From a virus (Duplodnaviria; Heunggongvirae; Uroviricota; Caudoviricetes), in IMG/VR virus record IMGVR_UViG_2718218139_000001: a stretch of 64,000 nucleotides of DNA. One strand, given 5' to 3'. Below the pieces are notes generated by a model. That model saw only the letters and a program-made list of their open reading frames with translations. It did no database searches and was not told the origin of the DNA. The position numbers and the translations under genes were made by a program. This document shows positions 1 to 39,373 of the stretch, one piece after another; the stretch's first letter is position 1; every line of letters starts with the position of its first letter.

Positions 1-44
1 CTCTTTGTTTAGTTAAAAATACATCGTTGGTATAGGTAGGGATT

Positions 45-70
45 AAGACTAAAACGTTGGTTTGGGGGAA
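45..70 (+). other. crossover site 1 of tail-fibre cassette array (hix/gix/cix-like 12-2-12 site)
   Basis: AAGACTAAAACG-TT-GGTTTGGGGGAA; AAAC-NN-GGTTT signature; right half-site identical in all eight sites. Confidence 0.5.
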
Positions 71-538
71 GGCTCAGCATTGCCCGTTGGCGTGCCCGTT
101 CCGTGGCCCTTAGAAACACCGCCAACGGGGTGGCTGAAATGTAACGGAGCAGCATTTTCTTCTGAAATGTATCCCAAACTGGCAAAGGCCTACCCCACCA
201 ATAAATTACCGGATTTACGGGGAGAATTTATTCGCGGCTGGGATGATGGGCGCGGGGTGGATGCGGGACGTGCTTTATTGAGCATTCAGACAGGAATGCT
301 GGAAAAGCACCGACATATTGTTGTAGCCAATGATGGTTACGACACAAAAGATGAATGGGAGCTGGCGACAATTTTCAAAAAAACATACACACAAGGACGG
401 GGGCTTGATGCCTCAAATACAGGAGGGAATTTGATTCCATCACCGACACTTCATTCTCGAGGGAGTATTGGTAATACTGGCGGGAGTGAAACCCGTCCAC
501 GAAATATCGCATTTAATTACATCGTAAGGGCGGCATAA
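62..538 (+). CDS. promoterless tail-fibre tip cassette 1 (alternative C-terminus of tail fibre)
   Basis: ORF track; conserved N block GEGSALPVGVPVPWP..LPDLRGEFIRGWDDGRG, variable core, conserved C block ETRPRNIAFNYIVRAA shared with 3' end of gene at 4005-6584. Confidence 0.8.
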   Translation: MGEGSALPVGVPVPWPLETPPTGWLKCNGAAFSSEMYPKLAKAYPTNKLPDLRGEFIRGWDDGRGVDAGRALLSIQTGMLEKHRHIVVANDGYDTKDEWELATIFKKTYTQGRGLDASNTGGNLIPSPTLHSRGSIGNTGGSETRPRNIAFNYIVRAA

Positions 539-557
539 AAACGTTGGTTTGGGGGAA
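532..557 (+). other. crossover site 2 (hix/gix/cix-like)
   Basis: GGCATAAAAACG-TT-GGTTTGGGGGAA; overlaps stop codon of cassette 1. Confidence 0.5.
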
Positions 558-1010
558 GGCTCTGCACTGCCTGTTGGTGTACCTGTTCCGTGGCCCTCAG
601 CCACTCCGCCAACGGGGTGGCTGAAATGTAACGGAGCAGCATTTTCTTCTGAAAAGTACCCAAATCTGGCAAAGGCTTACCCTACTAATAAATTGCCGGA
701 TTTACGCGGTGAATTTATTCGTGGCTGGGATGACGGACGTGGTGTGGATGCCGGGCGACAATTATTATCTTCACAGGGGGATGCAATAAGAAATATTGAG
801 GGGTTCGCCGATGGCGGGATTGGCATGTCTTTTGATGCAATCAGAGGGGCTTTTTATGATGCAGGAACACGATCTGCGAGAATGCCGAATAACACAACTG
901 ATATAGGCAAAACCGATGACCTTGGATTCGACGCCTCTCGTGTCGTGCCAACAGCTAATGAAAACCGTCCTCGTAATATTGCCTTTAATTATATCGTAAG
1001 GGCGGCATAA
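549..1010 (+). CDS. promoterless tail-fibre tip cassette 2
   Basis: ORF track; same conserved flanking blocks, different variable core. Confidence 0.8.
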   Translation: MGEGSALPVGVPVPWPSATPPTGWLKCNGAAFSSEKYPNLAKAYPTNKLPDLRGEFIRGWDDGRGVDAGRQLLSSQGDAIRNIEGFADGGIGMSFDAIRGAFYDAGTRSARMPNNTTDIGKTDDLGFDASRVVPTANENRPRNIAFNYIVRAA

Positions 1011-1029
1011 AAACGTTGGTTTGGGGGAA
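1004..1029 (+). other. crossover site 3 (hix/gix/cix-like)
   Basis: GGCATAAAAACG-TT-GGTTTGGGGGAA. Confidence 0.5.
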
Positions 1030-1488
1030 GGCTCGGCACTGCCCGTTGGTGTACCTGTTCCATGGCCCTCAGCCACACCGCCAACGGGGTGGCTGAAATG
1101 CAATGGTGCAGCATTTTCTTCTGAAAAGTACCCAAATCTGGCAAAGGTTTACCCTACTAATAAATTGCCGGATCTACGGGGCGAATTTATTCGCGGCTGG
1201 GATGACGGGCGGGGGATTGACTCTGGCCGTAATTTATTATCTGCACAGAATGATGCAATTCAGAATATTGTTGGTTCTTTCGGGCGTACTCAGCTTTTTA
1301 GAGATGTACTTAGTTCAGGGCCATTTAGTCAACATGGTCAAGTATTATCTACAGGCCTAAAGGAAACGGAAATTATTGAGGGTTATGGCTCTTATAACTG
1401 GACATTCGACGCCTCTCGCTCAGTTCGTACAGCATCTGAAACCCGCCCCCGTAATATTGCATTTAATTACATCGTAAGGGCGGCATAA
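1021..1488 (+). CDS. promoterless tail-fibre tip cassette 3
   Basis: ORF track; conserved flanking blocks. Confidence 0.8.
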   Translation: MGEGSALPVGVPVPWPSATPPTGWLKCNGAAFSSEKYPNLAKVYPTNKLPDLRGEFIRGWDDGRGIDSGRNLLSAQNDAIQNIVGSFGRTQLFRDVLSSGPFSQHGQVLSTGLKETEIIEGYGSYNWTFDASRSVRTASETRPRNIAFNYIVRAA

Positions 1489-1507
1489 AAACGTTGGTTT
1501 GGGGGAA
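1482..1507 (+). other. crossover site 4 (hix/gix/cix-like)
   Basis: GGCATAAAAACG-TT-GGTTTGGGGGAA. Confidence 0.5.
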
Positions 1508-1927
1508 GGCTCTGCACTGCCTGTTGGTGTGCCCGTTCCGTGGCCCTTAGAAACACCACCAACGGGCTGGCTAAAATGCAATGGTGCAGCATTTTCTTCT
1601 GAAATGTATCCCAAACTGGCAAAAGCCTACCCCACCAATAAATTACCGGATTTACGCGGTGAATTTATCCGTGGCTGGGATGATGGGCGCGGGATTGATG
1701 CGGGACGTACCCTGCTTTCAGGGCAGGATGGTACAAGTTTTTCTCATTACGGAGGTAATTTCGACATTGGGTCTGGTCATTCAATCAATAACTATGACCA
1801 AATTGTTTCTAACCAACCAGGATTTTCCCGTTTTTCATTTGCAGGGCCTTCACGAGGTGATGGGGTTAATTATGTAACCATTCGTCCTCGTAACATTGCG
1901 TTTAATTATATCGTAAGGGCGGCATGA
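1499..1927 (+). CDS. promoterless tail-fibre tip cassette 4
   Basis: ORF track; variable core related to cassette 6 (..NQPGFSRF..). Confidence 0.8.
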   Translation: MGEGSALPVGVPVPWPLETPPTGWLKCNGAAFSSEMYPKLAKAYPTNKLPDLRGEFIRGWDDGRGIDAGRTLLSGQDGTSFSHYGGNFDIGSGHSINNYDQIVSNQPGFSRFSFAGPSRGDGVNYVTIRPRNIAFNYIVRAA

Positions 1928-1946
1928 AAACGTTGGTTTAGGGGAA
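1921..1946 (+). other. crossover site 5 (hix/gix/cix-like)
   Basis: GGCATGAAAACG-TT-GGTTTAGGGGAA. Confidence 0.45.
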
Positions 1947-2441
1947 GGCTCGGCGCTGCCCGTTGGTGTACCTATTCCATGGCCCTCAGCCACACCGCCA
2001 ACGGGGTGGCTGAAATGCAATGGTGCAGCATTTTCTTCTGAAAAGTACCCAAATCTGGCAAAGGTTTACCCAACGTTAAAATTACCTGATTTACGCGGTG
2101 AATTTATCCGTGGCTGGGATGATGGGCGCGGGGTGGATGCTGGCCGCGCTTTGCTTAATTGGCAGCCACACACAATTTTGGACCATGCACACTATATGGA
2201 ATTATGGACAGGGGACGGACTCGCCGCAGGAAGTGCACGGGAAGGCGTAAATCCAGGAATACTAGCTACATACGGTGACGGGGGAATAGTTAAAACGGAC
2301 GAACCCGGTCATAAGGTGCCTTCCTCACTACGAGCTATTAGCTCTCGTAGTGTTAAACGTTATGGTGAAATTAGTGGAAATGTAGGTACAGAAACTCGCC
2401 CTCGCAACGTTGCATTTAATTATATCGTAAGGGCGGCATAA
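1938..2441 (+). CDS. promoterless tail-fibre tip cassette 5 (no start codon; open frame from site to stop)
   Basis: manual translation in frame from the crossover site gives GLGEGSALPVGVPIPWP...ETRPRNVAFNYIVRAA without stops; ORF track only reports 2133-2441 because no start codon precedes. Confidence 0.7.
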   Translation, partial: LGEGSALPVGVPIPWPSATPPTGWLKCNGAAFSSEKYPNLAKVYPTLKLPDLRGEFIRGWDDGRGVDAGRALLNWQPHTILDHAHYMELWTGDGLAAGSAREGVNPGILATYGDGGIVKTDEPGHKVPSSLRAISSRSVKRYGEISGNVGTETRPRNVAFNYIVRAA

Positions 2442-2460
2442 AAACGTTGGTTTAGGGGAA
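2435..2460 (+). other. crossover site 6 (hix/gix/cix-like)
   Basis: GGCATAAAAACG-TT-GGTTTAGGGGAA. Confidence 0.45.
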
Positions 2461-2880
2461 GGCTCGGCGCTGCCCGTTGGTGTACCTGTTCCATGGCCCT
2501 CCGCCACACCACCAACGGGGTGGCTGAAATGTAACGGAGCAGCATTTTCTTCTGAAAAGTACCCAAATCTGGCAAAGGTTTACCCCACTAATAAATTGCC
2601 GGATCTACGGGGCGAATTTATTCGAGGTTGGGATGATGGACGAGGTGTGGACAATGGGCGAGCATTATTAAGCAGCCAAGAGGCTACAAACTTTTCTCAG
2701 CGTGCCGGAAATATAGGCGATGGTGCAGGGCACGCAATTAATTTTCATGATGGCATCGTCGGAAATCAGCCAGGATTTTCACGATTTAATTTCACCAGTA
2801 ACTCTGTAGGTGATGGTATAAATTTTGTTGCTGTCAGGCCGCGAAATATCGCATTTAATTACATCGTAAGGGCGGCATAA
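2452..2880 (+). CDS. promoterless tail-fibre tip cassette 6
   Basis: open frame from site to stop at 2878-2880; ORF track 2596-2880 is its 3' part. Confidence 0.7.
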   Translation, partial: LGEGSALPVGVPVPWPSATPPTGWLKCNGAAFSSEKYPNLAKVYPTNKLPDLRGEFIRGWDDGRGVDNGRALLSSQEATNFSQRAGNIGDGAGHAINFHDGIVGNQPGFSRFNFTSNSVGDGINFVAVRPRNIAFNYIVRAA

Positions 2881-2899
2881 AAACGTTGGTTTAGGGGAA
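2874..2899 (+). other. crossover site 7 (hix/gix/cix-like)
   Basis: GGCATAAAAACG-TT-GGTTTAGGGGAA. Confidence 0.45.
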
Positions 2900-3388
2900 G
2901 GCTCGGCGCTGCCCGTTGGTGTACCTATTCCATGGCCCTCAGCCACACCGCCAACGGGGTGGCTGAAATGCAATGGTGCAGCATTTTCTTCTGAAAAGTA
3001 CCCAAATCTGGCAAAGGTTTACCCAACGTTAAAATTACCTGATTTACGCGGTGAGTTTATCCGTGGCTGGGATGATGGGCGAGGGATTGACTCTGGTCGC
3101 TCTATTTTAAGCGAGCAAGGATATGCAACGGAGGATCATGCTCACGGATTACCGTCAAAATCAACCGTAGCAACTGACCGCTCAATTAATTTCTACTTTG
3201 ACGAGGCATGGGCTACTAGTGGTAATACGGGAGTTATCAGATGGGGGAACACAAGCGATGCAGGATTGCCAGCCCCTAATTATGGAACTTTTAAAACATA
3301 TAAACAGTCCGTAGCTAATTTAGGTACTGCTGGCTTAGAAACCCGCCCTCGTAATATTGCATTTAATTATATTGTGAGGGCGGATTAA
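2891..3388 (+). CDS. promoterless tail-fibre tip cassette 7
   Basis: manual translation in frame: conserved N block ... ETRPRNIAFNYIVRAD then TAA at 3386-3388; no start codon so absent from ORF track. Confidence 0.65.
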   Translation, partial: LGEGSALPVGVPIPWPSATPPTGWLKCNGAAFSSEKYPNLAKVYPTLKLPDLRGEFIRGWDDGRGIDSGRSILSEQGYATEDHAHGLPSKSTVATDRSINFYFDEAWATSGNTGVIRWGNTSDAGLPAPNYGTFKTYKQSVANLGTAGLETRPRNIAFNYIVRAD

Positions 3389-3393
3389 TTATA

Positions 3394-4005
3394 TCAACTG
3401 GCTGTAGAAAGTTGTTTTTCAGGCCAGTTGAGATCTGGTGCCGTGGTTAAATCCATCGCGTTCAGCTCGTCTATATAATCTAGCACGGAGTTAAGCTGCG
3501 TGGTTTCTGCCTGCGTCAACTTCCGTCCAGCCCGTAATTTCAACTGAATCAGACTAATGGAATCCATCGCAGTATCAATCAATGACTGACGTTTTGTTTC
3601 TGCTGCCTCTACAGCTGCACTATGTTGAGCCTCAGTATCAACCACCCATTTCTCTCCATCCCATTTGTCGTATGGTGTTAGCGGGGCGATAGTGGTTGTA
3701 TTTTCCGGATAGTCACCCAACACCGTGATTTCTTCGGGATTCCCAGTGTCAATGCTATAGACAGTTTCGCCACGATGATCTGGCACATACTCCCATGAAC
3801 TTAAATCCTCTGAACGGAGAATCGCATAACCTGCTTTATGTGAGCCTGGAGCATCCAAACAAGAATTTGCCGGAATACCAACGCCAACAGCAAGATATTC
3901 AGTTGATGCAGAAATATATTCCCGATTACCACCATCATAGTTATAAACGATAATGTTTCCTGCCTGTATGGCTATAAGTTCGCTATTTAATATCGCATTA
4001 TCCAT
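3394..4005 (-). CDS. tail fibre assembly chaperone (Tfa / Mu-U-like)
   Basis: 203 aa; N-terminal ..YNYDGG..EY.. and C-terminal Tfa-type motifs; start ATG overlaps stop of fibre gene (TAATG). Confidence 0.8.
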   Translation of the reverse strand: MDNAILNSELIAIQAGNIIVYNYDGGNREYISASTEYLAVGVGIPANSCLDAPGSHKAGYAILRSEDLSSWEYVPDHRGETVYSIDTGNPEEITVLGDYPENTTTIAPLTPYDKWDGEKWVVDTEAQHSAAVEAAETKRQSLIDTAMDSISLIQLKLRAGRKLTQAETTQLNSVLDYIDELNAMDLTTAPDLNWPEKQLSTAS

Positions 4006-6584
4006 TATGCTGCTCTCACAATATAATTGAAGGCAATGTTACGTGGGCGGGTTTCATTCCCCCCAGATAACTCCGTTCTGTATTGACTGGTAAATTTACC
4101 ATTAATCGCTCCTTGCCGGACGGCGTTATCTGTCGACAACAGACTATCCCCCCCTCTGTCATTTGGCACCAATACCGTGTTATCCCACGCGTCCCATGAC
4201 CGAATATTATGATAATGACTTCCTGTTAACCACCCCTGTATGCTTAAGATGACCCTTCCCGCATCCACACCTCGCCCATCATCCCAACCACGGATAAACT
4301 CACCGCGTAAATCCGGTAATTTATTGGTGGGGTAGGCCTTTGCCAGTTTGGGATACATTTCAGAAGAAAATGCTGCACCATTGCATTTTAGCCAGCCCGT
4401 TGGTGGTGTTTCTAAGGGCCACGGAACGGGCACACCAACAGGCAGTGCAGAGCCTTCCCCCAAACCAAGGTAATCAAGAACGCTCTGAATACTGGTCTTA
4501 CCAAGAATGGCGCGTCCAACACTTGTCAATGCAGTTAACGCGGCACGATCAACACCTGTGAAATAAGGGAGTTTATCTGCTGCTGTAGCTAGTGCCGCTA
4601 GAGCAGTGAGCGTAGCGTCTGCCGCTTGCTTTCCATTAGCCAAATCATATGCAGCCTTGACAGCTTTCGGTGTGGCGGCCAGCACTTCAGACGTGCTGTT
4701 AGTGGCACTACTGAGCTGAGTGATGCCTTTCGCTGTCAATGAAGCTGTTGGCACACCAGTGATCTGATTCCAGGGATGTGTATGACTGGATGGTGCCTTT
4801 CCGGCTGCTAGATCGTATGCAGCTTTAACCGCTTTTGGAGTTGCAGCTAATGTTTCAGAAGTGCTGTTGGTGTCGCTACTGAGCTGAACTATCCCTTTTT
4901 GTGTCGTGGTTGCATCCTGGGCTGTATACTTCCCGTTAGCCAAATCATATGCAGCCTTGACAGCTTTCGGTGTGGCGGCCAGCACTTCGGACGTACTGTT
5001 AGTGGCACTACTGAGCTGAGTGATGCCTTTCGCTGTCAATGAAGCTGTTGGCACACCAGTGATCTGATTCCAGGGATGTGTATGACTGGATGGTGCCTTT
5101 CCGGCTGCTAGATCGTATGCAGCTTTAACCGCTTTTGGAGTTGCAGCTAATGTTTCAGAAGTGCTGTTGGTGTCGCTACTGAGCTGAACTATCCCTTTTT
5201 GTGTCGTGGTTGCATCCTGGGCTGTATACTTCCCGTTAGCCAGGTCATATGCAGCCTTGACAGCTTTCGGTGTGGCGGCCAGCACTTCAGACGTGCTGTT
5301 AGTGGCACTACTGAGCTGAGTGATGCCTTTCGCTGTCAATGAAGCTGTTGGCACACCAGTGATCTGATTCCAGGGATGTGTATGACTGGATGGTGCCTTT
5401 CCGGCTGCTAGATCGTATGCAGCTTTAACCGCTTTTGGAGTTGCAGCTAATGTTTCAGAAGTGCTGTTGGTGTCGCTACTGAGCTGAACTATCCCTTTTT
5501 GTGTCGTGGTTGCATCCTGGGCTGTATACTTCCCGTTAGCCAGGTCATATGCAGCCTTGACAGCTTTCGGTGTGGCGGCCAGCACTTCAGACGTGCTGTT
5601 AGTGGCACTACTGAGCTGAGTGATGCCTTTCGCTGTCAATGAAGCTGTTGGCACACCAGTGATCTGATTCCAGGGATGTGTATGACTGGATGGTGCCTTT
5701 CCGGCTGCTAGATCGTATGCAGCTTTAACCGCTTTTGGAGTTGCAGCTAATGTTTCAGAAGTGCTGTTGGTGTCGCTACTGAGCTGAACTATCCCTTTTT
5801 GTGTCGTGGTTGCATCCTGGGCTGTATACTTCCCGTTAGCCAGGTCATATGCAGCCTTGACAGCTTTCGGTGTGGCGGCCAGCACTTCGGACGTACTGTT
5901 AGTGGCACTACTGAGCTGAACTAATCCCTTTTGCGTTGTGCTTGCATCCTGCGCCGTATATTTGCTTTTCGCCAGATCGTAGGCTTTTTTAACTGCCAGC
6001 GAACTCGCAGCAACATCACTTCTGGTACTGGTTACAGAGTCTGAAATATCAATGCCGATCGTGCGGTTGATACGCTCGGATGTATCAATCATCTCTTGAG
6101 TAATGGTAGATACGCCAGCAGGGATATTCACCGTACAAACCAGCAGTTCCCCATCACCTAACTGATATGAATCGGTATAGGTTCTGGCAACAAATTCAGC
6201 TGCATGAATATGTGACGCGGTATTCACCTGATAGGTATCTTCTCCAAGAAGGTATCTTCCCTTCAGCACAATTGCATATTTCTTGCCTGCGTTAAGTGCA
6301 AGAGAGATATCCTTACGATGCTGAATAGTTACCTGGTAGAATTCACCAATATCCACTGACGCCGCGCCAGCGGTTTTATCTCCATCCACTGAGGTGATTA
6401 ACAGGTTCATTCCACCGCCAGGCTTAGGCAAGAAACCAGCATAAAATCCCGGGTCAACAATTCCCCTGAATTTTCGGTTTAGAGCGGCTGACAGATATGG
6501 TTCGTGGTATTGCACATCAGCCACCAGAGCCAACGACTCGGGTGATGGGTAAGTAACCGATGTAACAACTGTAACGTCATTCAT
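4005..6584 (-). CDS. tail fibre protein (P1 S-like): constant part, repeat shaft and currently expressed tip
   Basis: ORF track 4005-6671; start placed at ATG 6584 preceded by AAGGA; C-terminus carries the same conserved blocks as the cassettes. Confidence 0.85.
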   Translation of the reverse strand: MNDVTVVTSVTYPSPESLALVADVQYHEPYLSAALNRKFRGIVDPGFYAGFLPKPGGGMNLLITSVDGDKTAGAASVDIGEFYQVTIQHRKDISLALNAGKKYAIVLKGRYLLGEDTYQVNTASHIHAAEFVARTYTDSYQLGDGELLVCTVNIPAGVSTITQEMIDTSERINRTIGIDISDSVTSTRSDVAASSLAVKKAYDLAKSKYTAQDASTTQKGLVQLSSATNSTSEVLAATPKAVKAAYDLANGKYTAQDATTTQKGIVQLSSDTNSTSETLAATPKAVKAAYDLAAGKAPSSHTHPWNQITGVPTASLTAKGITQLSSATNSTSEVLAATPKAVKAAYDLANGKYTAQDATTTQKGIVQLSSDTNSTSETLAATPKAVKAAYDLAAGKAPSSHTHPWNQITGVPTASLTAKGITQLSSATNSTSEVLAATPKAVKAAYDLANGKYTAQDATTTQKGIVQLSSDTNSTSETLAATPKAVKAAYDLAAGKAPSSHTHPWNQITGVPTASLTAKGITQLSSATNSTSEVLAATPKAVKAAYDLANGKYTAQDATTTQKGIVQLSSDTNSTSETLAATPKAVKAAYDLAAGKAPSSHTHPWNQITGVPTASLTAKGITQLSSATNSTSEVLAATPKAVKAAYDLANGKQAADATLTALAALATAADKLPYFTGVDRAALTALTSVGRAILGKTSIQSVLDYLGLGEGSALPVGVPVPWPLETPPTGWLKCNGAAFSSEMYPKLAKAYPTNKLPDLRGEFIRGWDDGRGVDAGRVILSIQGWLTGSHYHNIRSWDAWDNTVLVPNDRGGDSLLSTDNAVRQGAINGKFTSQYRTELSGGNETRPRNIAFNYIVRAA
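4455..4480 (-). other. crossover site inside expressed tail-fibre gene (inverted relative to cassette sites)
   Basis: TTCCCCCAAACC-AA-GGTAATCAAGAA on + strand; homology with cassettes begins exactly at the core; outer half-site TTCTTGATTACC resembles hixL half-site. Confidence 0.55.
4635..5918. repeat. about 4.3 tandem copies of a near-identical 300-bp coding repeat in the fibre shaft
   Basis: sequence lines 4681-4920, 4981-5220, 5281-5520, 5581-5820 are essentially identical; encodes repeated LAATPKAVKAAYDLA units. Confidence 0.9.
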
Positions 6585-6595
6585 CAAGCATATCC

Positions 6596-7030
6596 TTATG
6601 CTGTAGTCGAGTTTATGGCCATAACTGCGGTATATGTTTTGCCCACATACAGCGAGTCTTCTTGGACACAAATAATGGCGATTGGCTTATTCTCGTTATC
6701 CAGAACAACCAGAGTGTTGAATGGGTAGTTTTTCCCTTCCTGCAACTGACTTTGATCAAGGTCCATTCGGACAGTAATTATCCCGCCTGAGTAGGTTGGG
6801 ACGAGGTTGATGGTGCAAAATTGACTGGTCAGTTCTGCCAGATCGAAAGCCTTTGGCAGTTCTCCAATCTCATAAGTGCCATCTCCTTTCTTAGTAACCA
6901 GTGAACTGGTACCGAAAACGGCCTTGCTGATTAAAAATCGAGAGCCTTTGTTAATGGACGATTCAGCGCGCCGCTGATAGTAATAGTCCAACAACTGACT
7001 CTTATAGAGGTTTGTTGAGACGTCAGACAT
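6596..7030 (-). CDS. tail fibre-associated structural protein (P1 R-like by position)
   Basis: ORF track, 144 aa, directly upstream of fibre gene. Confidence 0.55.
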   Translation of the reverse strand: MSDVSTNLYKSQLLDYYYQRRAESSINKGSRFLISKAVFGTSSLVTKKGDGTYEIGELPKAFDLAELTSQFCTINLVPTYSGGIITVRMDLDQSQLQEGKNYPFNTLVVLDNENKPIAIICVQEDSLYVGKTYTAVMAINSTTA

Positions 7031-7060: not shown

Positions 7061-7081
7061 ATTGTAAGATAAGTAACTTGT
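7061..7081 (-). promoter_or_regulatory. late-promoter-like motif (ACAAGTTACT-N5-TACAAT) upstream of R-S-tfa operon
   Basis: one of four copies of the motif AACAAnTnACT-N5-TAnAAT found 25-35 nt upstream of late operon starts. Confidence 0.4.
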
Positions 7082-37944: not shown

Positions 37945-38087
37945 GATGAAGTGCAGCTCTTTGAAGCAACCAGAAGATAAGCATCTGGCTTCACAACATA
38001 AACCGCAGGAACGACCAATAAACGGTAGTCCGTATGGAGAACACCCCGTTGAGGAAGAGGCCTGGCCGGAACCGTAACCGGCACTAC

Positions 38088-38176
38088 AACGTTGAGAACA
38101 CTGGCGTAACGGGGTCATATCCCAATCTACGAATAAATGTTGCGTTGCAGCGTGACAACCAGTGTTCTCAACATTG
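38088..38176 (+). other. long hairpin presenting conserved loop motif TAACGGGGTCATATCCCAATCTAC
   Basis: 17-bp stem AACGTTGAGAACACTGG / CCAGTGTTCTCAACATTG; motif repeated at 38386. Confidence 0.4.
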
Positions 38177-38370
38177 TGGTGAATGCACAGGCTGATGTGC
38201 CGCAACTACAGTAGTGCGCGCTTTGCGGGGCTTGCTACAACCCTGTGTCGGAGTTCAGCACCGACCATCACAGTTTGATTCTCTGGCATGAGCATAACGC
38301 TGAAATAAGTCCAGTCTGGTGCGGCCCGATCACCCGCCGTTAGCTCCACGAAACGGAGCACGTAACAGGT

Positions 38371-38430
38371 AAGAGCATTCTCCTGTAACGGGTTCATATC
38401 CCAATCTACAGGTCCACCAGGAATGCTCTT
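38371..38430 (+). other. second hairpin presenting the same loop motif
   Basis: stem AAGAGCATTCTCCTG / CAGGAATGCTCTT around TAACGGGTTCATATCCCAATCTAC. Confidence 0.4.
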
Positions 38431-38588
38431 TCCGTTGCGGTGAATGCGGCTAAGCGCACGCGGAACAGTTAAAACAATCCTCCTTAATGGTTAAACATTC
38501 CGGCGTTAATTGTTAACTGGTTAACGTCACCGGGAGGCACTCGGCACCGCAATCTAATAAATATGTCACTTTTATTGAGGGATAACCA

Positions 38589-39023
38589 ATGTTCGGTAAA
38601 TTGTTCGGCAAGAAAGTCGCTTCTGCAAAAGTAGAGCTGAAAAAAGTTGAGAATCGCGATCTGATGGAGGCCATCATCGGTGGCTGTTTGTTGGTGTCTG
38701 CCGCTGATGGTGAAATCGAAAAAGAAGAAACAGCGAAACTTGATCAGCTTGTCCGCTCTAATCCGCGTCTTAGTCATTTTGGTAACGAAATTACTGCAAC
38801 AATTACCCGCTTTACCGAGCAACTGGAAGCTGGCTTCCGTGTTGGTCGCATGAATATCCTTCGCGAAATTGAAGATATCAAAAACGATCCAAAAGAAGCG
38901 GAAGAAGTATTCGTTAACATGCTGACAATTGCAGAAGCGGACGGTGAAATCGAGCCAGCAGAACACAAAGTACTGGAAGAAGTAGGCCGTCGTTTAGGTC
39001 TTCGTGTGGAAGATTATCTGTAA
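38589..39023 (+). CDS. tciA: TerB-like tellurite-resistance protein
   Basis: 144 aa; two TerB-type repeats ..AADGEIEKEE.. and ..EADGEIEPAE.. Confidence 0.7.
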   Translation: MFGKLFGKKVASAKVELKKVENRDLMEAIIGGCLLVSAADGEIEKEETAKLDQLVRSNPRLSHFGNEITATITRFTEQLEAGFRVGRMNILREIEDIKNDPKEAEEVFVNMLTIAEADGEIEPAEHKVLEEVGRRLGLRVEDYL

Positions 39024-39187
39024 TGGCAAGCAAGGCACGTATCGCAATCGCCATTGGTTTTCTCTTGCTGTCCGTGCTGGTGGATTTCACCAGCACAATC
39101 CTGTCAGTTTTATCGGACGGGGCGTTGGTGGCAGTAGCTGTAACATTGGTATGGCCGATATTAAAAACAGCTTCTAAGGATCAGTGA
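39023..39187 (+). CDS. small membrane protein (tciB position)
   Basis: 54-aa ORF, start overlaps tciA stop (TAATG); hydrophobic. Confidence 0.4.
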   Translation: MASKARIAIAIGFLLLSVLVDFTSTILSVLSDGALVAVAVTLVWPILKTASKDQ

Positions 39188-39294
39188 TGGGCTTCTGGGA
39201 TTTTGCTGACAAGCATCCAATTGTTCTCGTTGTCATTGCTGGCATAGTTGTAGGCGGTATTGCTGGCGTCATAGAAGCACTCAGGAAACAGTAA
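39187..39294 (+). CDS. small membrane protein (tciC position)
   Basis: 35-aa ORF, ATGA overlap with previous ORF; single hydrophobic helix. Confidence 0.35.
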   Translation: MGFWDFADKHPIVLVVIAGIVVGGIAGVIEALRKQ

Positions 39295-39297
39295 TCC

Positions 39298-39373
39298 GGC
39301 CCTTTAGCTCAGTGGTTAGAGCTGGCGACTCATAATCGCACGGTCACCGGTTCAAGTCCGGTAGGGGCCACCA
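39298..39373 (+). tRNA. tRNA-Ile2 (CAT anticodon, lysidine type)
   Basis: near-identity of anticodon arm GGCGACTCATAATCGC and overall sequence to E. coli ileX as recalled; CCA encoded. Confidence 0.75.

Follow-up and report, generated by a model that had tools for sequence, protein, structure and literature searches.

A very probable Min-type multiple DNA-inversion system with eight tail-fibre tips in a P1-like Escherichia coli plasmid prophage

The tail-fibre locus described here lies at the left end of a 64,000-nucleotide (nt) stretch of DNA (the window), deposited as IMG/VR virus record IMGVR_UViG_2718218139_000001 (Caudoviricetes) and corresponding to positions 399-64,398 of the source record CP012491.1 (95,721 bp). 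Read on the minus strand, it comprises a P1-type late promoter (LPs), gene R, the tail-fibre gene S, made up of a constant part (Sc) and a tip (H), and the tail-fibre assembly gene tfa; beyond tfa follow seven silent tip cassettes (A to G) on the plus strand, each led by a 26-bp mix site, with an eighth mix site, the expression site, inside S. The region very probably represents the Min multiple DNA-inversion system ('Min shufflon') of a p15B-type P1-like E. coli plasmid prophage. Coordinates are given in Table 1.

Repeat finding in the array region returned a 221-nt block in seven direct copies (82-92% identical, 439-514 nt apart), each of which pairs with positions 4236-4476 as an inverted repeat of 202-236 nt (81-96% identical). 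A core-motif search of the whole 64 kb gave exactly eight sites, seven in one orientation and one (4455-4480) inverted, and the family pattern of half-site plus core, TTCNNNNAAACCAANGT, matched eight times, against 0.01 matches expected from dinucleotide shuffles. When read from the outer half towards the cassette half, the central dinucleotide is TT in 8/8 sites; that of the expression site (4467-4468) falls within a Leu codon of S. The cassette-side half, TTCCCC[C/T]AAACC, agrees with every consensus position of the Din-family sites. Exactly GGCATAAAAACG-TT-GGTTTGGGGGAA is carried by three of the seven cassette sites, GGTTTAGGGGAA occurs in three and GGCATG in one; the outermost site (45-70) has the outer half AAGACTAAAACG, unlike the other cassette sites.

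The sites were compared with the Din-family targets in Table 3 of PMC3241671, which lists the six mix sites of p15B as taken from X62121. Four window sites (45-70, 2435-2460, 2874-2899 and 4455-4480) match published p15B mix sites at 26/26 positions, the other four are 1-2 nt off one of them, and a variant site of the relatives (CACATAAAAACG...) equals mixN''O'. The closest non-mix site is pix, with 11/12 positions shared by the cassette-side half-site TTCCCCCAAACC, which scores 9/12 against gix and 8/12 against the left half of hixL; the Sc-side half-site TTCTTGATTACC scores 10/12 against hixL. An initial annotation of this DNA, made from the sequence alone, had given the same 10/12 and 9/12 scores, which the table bears out; it had also noted the common 2-bp core and predicted inversion by a serine invertase at these sites. 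Its claim that every cassette starts at the exact 26-bp site applies to three, the others being 1-2 nt off and the first having its own outer half, and its description of the locus as reminiscent of Min was too cautious, as mix-site identity points to the same system.

When translated from the right half-site, 7/7 cassettes begin GLGEGSALPVG... and stay open to a stop codon over 143-168 amino acids (aa). On the minus strand, S reads across its own site as ...SVLDYL/GLGEGSALPVG..., in the frame common to all seven cassettes, so that exchange at the central dinucleotide preserves the reading frame. Repeats, motif search and translation thus confirm what had initially been described: seven silent plus-strand cassettes, a site before each, and the inverted site in S. 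In an alignment of the eight tips, the first 77 aa are largely invariant (66/77 columns) and the last 13 aa (RPRNIAFNYIVRA[A/D]) nearly so; the 50-78 aa between them cannot be aligned. The same last 16 aa, previously ascribed to all tips, are found in A, C and H; in the C-terminal block, ETR is absent from D and F and reads ENR in B and RNV in E, and G ends in RAD. All eight tips contain a Pfam Collar domain (E about 1e-15). Homology to 9cuy, a short tail fibre of known structure (E 4e-18), extends along the entire tip, and the N-terminal block also resembles the T4 gp37 and gp12 collar domains; these sequence matches are the basis of the fold assignment. An AlphaFold2 model built from the eight-row tip alignment was unusable (mean predicted local distance difference test score of 37).

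Within the 64-kb window, no serine recombinase homologue was found (best tblastn E = 0.26), in agreement with the initial annotation, which had placed the invertase and its enhancer just left of position 1. The open reading frame (ORF) at 29794-30366, of the invertase's length (190 aa), was considered and is not a recombinase. In the 398 nt of CP012491.1 that precede the window, an invertase start codon is located 8-10 nt left of window position 1, on the minus strand and with transcription directed away from the array. Codons 1-129 of 190 were read, the last 61 crossing the origin of CP012491.1; those readable match the relatives' 190-aa protein without exception, the catalytic-serine motif RVSTNDQ included. 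A 459-nt segment that includes the invertase 5' part is identical at 458/459 positions to a relative with a complete gene, and window positions 1-70 are identical (70/70) to relative L001. In the relatives, the gene for a 190-aa 'recombinase family protein' lies some 70 bp to the left of the first cassette, with transcription leading away from it; the protein has the domains Resolvase (E 2e-51) and HTH_7 (E 3e-15), matches the Mu Gin structures 4m6f and 3uj3 over residues 1-185 (E = 4e-92), and is identical in sequence to the UniProt entry Q05517_ECOLX ('DNA-invertase'). Nucleotides 19-90 of the relatives' gene share 58/72 positions with the enhancer annotated in P1 cin, and by this similarity the 5' segment of the invertase gene is a candidate Fis-dependent recombinational enhancer. 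The predicted position thus stands for the start of the gene over the 129 codons, and for the enhancer as a sequence similarity.

The invertase start codon is about 55 nt from the outermost mix site (window 1-61; 16524-16597 in L044). At this distance, the invertase promoter must lie at or beyond that site, possibly inside the invertible DNA; no sigma-70-like match was found between the start codon and the outermost mix site.

For the comparison of natural isomers, loci with an Sc-side junction were read from 10 annotated plasmids and 32 IMG/VR contigs, and cassettes were classed by their variable core, with types A-H in the window and I, J and K in relatives; isomers were compared between strains and public records, not inside one culture. 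For each of the seven silent cassettes, at least one record has an in-frame fusion with Sc, as expected for the inversion isomers predicted initially: A in L002, B in L042 (NZ_CP135714), C in L043 (NZ_CP157116) and G in L005 and L032 (variable core 100% identical in each case), D in L021 (99%) and L041 (98%), E in L024 and L025 (97%), and F in L040 (99%). The chimeric-junction matches for the fusions of Sc to B and to C were in multiple pieces and were settled by classifying the fetched loci. Full-length fused S genes are annotated in relatives. Conversely, the H tip fused in the window is found silent in L007 and L008, with 100% identity over 520 nt; the flanks diverge from position -3, which places the break in homology within 3 bp, the 2-bp core among them. 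Intact copies of a second H allele likewise occur in both states, fused in L003 and silent in L001, L002, L004 and L005.

The relatives differ in the order of their cassettes, which lie on either strand and to either side of tfa, with at least 11 complete arrays that differ; complete arrays were read with 3, 4, 6, 7, 7, 7, 8, 9, 10 and 17 sites. The outer half AAGACTAAAACG is constant at the invertase side in all relatives, where the adjoining cassette varies, and the outer half TTCTTGATTACC is constant at the Sc side in 40/42 loci. Wherever this tfa type occurs among the relatives, G, tfa and H stay together as one core, which was flipped as a whole in L005 and L032 (H+ tfa+ Sc:G-). These isomers show that the mix sites have recombined repeatedly in this lineage, and from those of the other strains we infer that this replicon would switch as well.

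The longest array, in L002 (NZ_CP135665, 699-9685), has 17 mix sites and holds A four times, K three times and B, J and I twice each, on both strands; with three or four sites in other relatives, arrays evidently expand and contract. Tips unlike A-K were seen behind the same exact Sc-side junction in ten contigs (L011, L013, L017, L019, L026, L028, L029, L035, L038, L039), several of which have a more distant tfa next (56-79% identical). The 11 named types do not exhaust the pool of tips.

Table 1. Positions of the mix sites, tip cassettes and tail-fibre genes in the window.
Feature	Position	Strand	Details
Mix site 1, outermost, beside invertase gene	45..70	+	AAGACTAAAACG-TT-GGTTTGGGGGAA; other strand TTCCCCCAAACC AA CGTTTTAGTCTT; = mixM1''L' (26/26)
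Silent tip cassette A	59..538	+	159 aa from GLGEG; Pfam Collar, E 6e-15
Mix site 2	532..557	+	GGCATAAAAACG-TT-GGTTTGGGGGAA; left half includes the stop codon of cassette A; 25/26 to mixMr''N'
Silent tip cassette B	546..1010	+	154 aa; Collar, E 3e-15
Mix site 3	1004..1029	+	From core-motif search
Silent tip cassette C	1018..1488	+	156 aa; Collar
Mix site 4	1482..1507	+	From core-motif search
Silent tip cassette D	1496..1927	+	143 aa; Collar
Mix site 5	1921..1946	+	GGCATGAAAACG-TT-GGTTTAGGGGAA
Silent tip cassette E	1935..2441	+	168 aa; Collar
Mix site 6	2435..2460	+	Reverse strand TTCCCCTAAACC AA CGTTTTTATGCC; 26/26 to mixMr''N', mixO''P', mixP''Q'
Silent tip cassette F	2449..2880	+	143 aa, related to D; Collar
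Mix site 7	2874..2899	+	Reverse strand TTCCCCTAAACC AA CGTTTTTATGCC; 26/26 to mixMr''N', mixO''P', mixP''Q'
Silent tip cassette G	2888..3388	+	166 aa, ends RAD; no mix site after; convergent with tfa; Collar
tfa, tail-fibre assembly gene	3394..4005	-	203 aa; Pfam Caudo_TAP, E 3e-30; start overlaps stop of tip H
Tip H, currently expressed as 3' end of S	4005..4466	-	153 aa; Collar
Expression-site mix site	4455..4480	-	TTCCCCCAAACC AA GGTAATCAAGAA on +; 26/26 to mixQ''R'
Sc, constant part of tail-fibre gene S	4467..6584	-	10 Phage_fiber_2 repeats, E 7e-186
Gene R, first in tail-fibre operon	6596..7030	-	144 aa; Pfam Phage_P1_tail_fiber_R recorded for source contig
LPs, P1-type late promoter for R-S	7061..7079	-	AAGTTACTT-N4-TACAAT; identical to annotated P1 LPs

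In the mechanism that we propose, LPs would drive R and S late in infection, and the S product would consist of the constant shaft Sc, ending at the mix site, and one collar-type receptor-binding tip, with the seven promoterless tips downstream each led by a mix site opposed to the expression site. Min would bind pairs of mix sites, and synapsis with the Fis-bound enhancer would let only inverted pairs react; both 2-bp cores (TT/AA) would then be cleaved, the halves rotated and religated. The DNA between the two sites would thereby be inverted and the outer half at Sc joined to the inner half of another cassette, bringing a new tip in frame. The dependence on Fis and enhancer and the chemistry of strand exchange are presumed here by analogy with the invertase family. 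Since the expression site is opposed in orientation to each of the seven silent sites, every silent tip would be one inversion away. A breadth-first model, which allows inversion only between opposed sites, yields 240 arrangements for six sites and 10,080 for eight, the latter encoding just eight protein variants. The figure of 240 is reportedly also the published number of p15B isomers. We propose that inversion would change the host range of this replicon.

The long inverted repeats (202-236 nt, 81-96%) might also recombine without any site-specific enzyme, by RecA-dependent homologous recombination between the conserved 5' blocks of about 210 bp. In line with such exchange, the two H alleles (window 4236-4466 against L001 7602-8060 and others) differ at 28 positions, 25 of them in the first 152 nt; the conserved block of the window H allele is 96% identical to that of cassette D, and strict linkage of the right half-site variant to the type of variable core, which had been expected, was not found across the loci. 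The notion that the conserved block never recombines was dropped for this lack of strict linkage. As the source of the isomers, homologous recombination is nonetheless very unlikely: it would spread junctions along the block, whereas a given allele shows no difference between its fused and its silent copies from the core on, with the flanks changing just outside TT; both H alleles are intact in fused and silent positions; and the sites are the published Min crossover sites, with an invertase gene adjacent. Still less credible is non-reciprocal gene conversion with the silent cassettes as donors, as in pilin-type antigenic variation. The usual layout of such systems has promoterless silent copies opposite a single expression site, as here, and the mosaic conserved blocks indicate that some conversion has occurred; the displaced tip, however, recurs silent in opposite orientation with the intervening order reversed (L005: H+ tfa+ Sc:G-), which is the signature of reciprocal inversion and speaks against conversion.

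A reading of the cassettes as small genes in their own right ('phage tail protein', 136-168 aa), expressed alone, might be drawn from the in-frame TTG that opens four of them and from relatives, in which the Prokaryotic Genome Annotation Pipeline (PGAP) annotates separate coding sequences. This TTG belongs to the mix half-site, however, and is TTA in E, F and G, the longest ORFs of E and F being cut to 102 and 94 aa and G being without an entry in the ORF list. A sigma-70-like promoter scan found no enrichment (7 sites against 10.4 expected), every cassette type is fused in frame to Sc in some record, and the cassettes are without a fibre shaft to attach the tip to the virion, all of which makes separate expression highly improbable. 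A frozen relic, in which sites and cassettes are intact and inversion has been stopped by a defective or silent invertase, we consider unlikely. The invertase is known here from codons 1-129 of 190, truncated invertase genes occur in some P1-like plasmids (PMC6906374), and the window state, with H fused and tfa directly behind, is the commonest (6/23 loci with this tfa type). Eight sites and eight tips are nevertheless intact and free of frameshifts, the identity with a relative that has a complete invertase gene (458/459 nt) covers the 5' part of the gene, and close relatives display many different arrangements.

PGAP in the relatives L001 to L008 starts the separate 'phage tail protein' genes from the TTG in the mix half-site; in E, F and G (1935-3388), where TTA takes its place, ORFs are truncated or labelled 'incomplete'. 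The separate-gene annotation looks like an artefact that hides the switch.

Several points weigh against the Min interpretation or narrow it. That the invertase gene of the source is intact is something we infer from codons 1-129, and the evidence for activity comes from other strains, not from the population of this replicon. The half-sites at the cassette ends match the family consensus poorly (CGTTTTTATGCC compared with -GTTT---GAA). The 5' blocks are mosaic among cassette types, and homologous exchange has therefore also shaped the array. Finally, some of the predicted states may yield poorly assembled fibres, because tfa would be opposed to the operon and no P1 late-promoter motif was found in 1-4500.

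This last point arises from the position of the single tfa within the invertible DNA, where every one-step switch from the window state sets it against the late operon. For a promoter that might serve tfa in the flipped state, the sigma-70-like scan came out below chance (7 sites, 10.4 expected). Among 23 loci with this tfa type, which are not independent of one another, tfa and Sc have the same orientation in 17 and are opposed in 6 (L005, L023, L032, L033, L034, L037). The excess of co-oriented loci (17:6) is a weak hint that co-orientation matters for infectious particles. Either most collar-type tips fold without co-transcribed Tfa, which would then serve H only, or the orientation of tfa decides which isomers are infectious; we advance this pair of alternatives tentatively and regard it as a doubtful one.

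The tfa product is identical to the Swiss-Prot entry TFAB_ECOLX, which we take to be the tail-fibre assembly homologue of p15B. S encodes 859 aa from the ATG at 6584, as initially annotated, the longest ORF having 888 aa from an upstream TTG. Its shaft contains 4.3 tandem copies of a 300-bp unit (4629-5919, 98% identical), and in relatives the length of S ranges from 559 to 974 aa; fibre length varies with the number of repeats, independently of the tip switch. LPs is the sole perfect match to the P1 late promoter in the window. Across R and the 5' end of Sc, identity to P1 and P7 DNA is about 97%, and Gp16, baseplate protein and SLT protein follow next in P1 order. Matches to the region came from 579 plasmid records, most being non-mobilizable E. 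coli plasmids of about 90-100 kb. By these sequence matches, the replicon belongs to the P1-like plasmid prophages with a Punavirus-type backbone. A cluster of four tRNA genes (Asn-GTT, Tyr-GTA, Thr-TGT, Met-CAT) is present on the plus strand at 37611-39373. In NZ_CP035313, mcr-1.1 with ISApl1 lies inside the stretch that matches the cassette and tail-fibre region, and L004 (pR15_MCR-1) has unannotated gaps within its array, where mcr-1 may sit.

If inversion changes host range as proposed, the separate-gene labels hide a host-range switch in hundreds of E. coli phage-plasmids, some of them with mcr-1. With at least 11 named tip types and further unclassified ones on a common scaffold, a catalogue of tips could be of use in predicting the host range of P1-like transducing elements or in engineering it.

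The Min system of plasmid p15B (E. coli 15T-) was reportedly described by Sandmeier, Iida, Arber and co-workers in 1990-92, with X62121 as its sequence. The window shares with it the 26-bp mix sites, four of them at 26/26, the tfa product (TFAB_ECOLX) and, through the relatives, the invertase (Q05517_ECOLX), as well as the layout of invertase, cassettes, one tfa, Sc, R and P1 late promoter, with in-frame fusion at the core. It differs in having eight sites and tips, where p15B has six, with 10,080 arrangements compared with 240 in the inversion model, and in a longer S (859 aa) through extra 300-bp shaft repeats. The novelty of an eight-state switch implied by the initial annotation is thus not upheld: Min has been described before and is common in E. 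coli plasmids, and eight sites are unremarkable in a range of 3 to 17 among relatives. In a reported P7-like mcr-1 plasmid, 5 kb are 99% identical to p15B min, and the gene table of that plasmid, with about seven cassette-sized ORFs, suggests a comparably large array (PMC5786510).

The Cin system of P1 and P7 has R, the 5' end of Sc and LPs 97-100% identical to those of the window, and that of P1 likewise has a 26-bp site with an AA core. Its serine invertase is homologous to that of the relatives, and the P1 cin enhancer lies in the 5' part of the coding sequence, where their gene resembles it. P1, however, has two cix sites and two states, and each of its variable parts comes with its own assembly gene (Sv-U, Sv'-U'); P1 Sv measures about 530 aa (1.6 kb), whereas the tips of the window are of the collar type and about 150 aa long. 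Moreover, P1 cin points into the invertible segment and overlaps cixL, whereas the invertase gene beside the window points away from the array. The match of the relatives' invertase to the Gin structures (E = 4e-92 over 185 residues) extends the kinship to Mu Gin, which, like e14 Pin and Salmonella Hin, differs as a two-site, two-state system; Hin flips a promoter, not a coding end.

Analogous in function are the shufflons of R64 (Rci) and of Bifidobacterium prophages (Rin), in which alternative C-terminal segments are likewise joined to one constant gene by multiple inversions. These two differ from Min in employing tyrosine recombinases on short asymmetric sites, those of R64 (sfx) being 19 bp long, and what is modified in R64 is not a phage fibre but pilV, the adhesin of a conjugative pilus. 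Rin acts at 11-bp rix sites and swaps segments of a phage receptor-binding protein (PMC6109161). In the same publication, Min appears as a serine-invertase tail-fibre shufflon under the name 'coliphage Min shufflon'.

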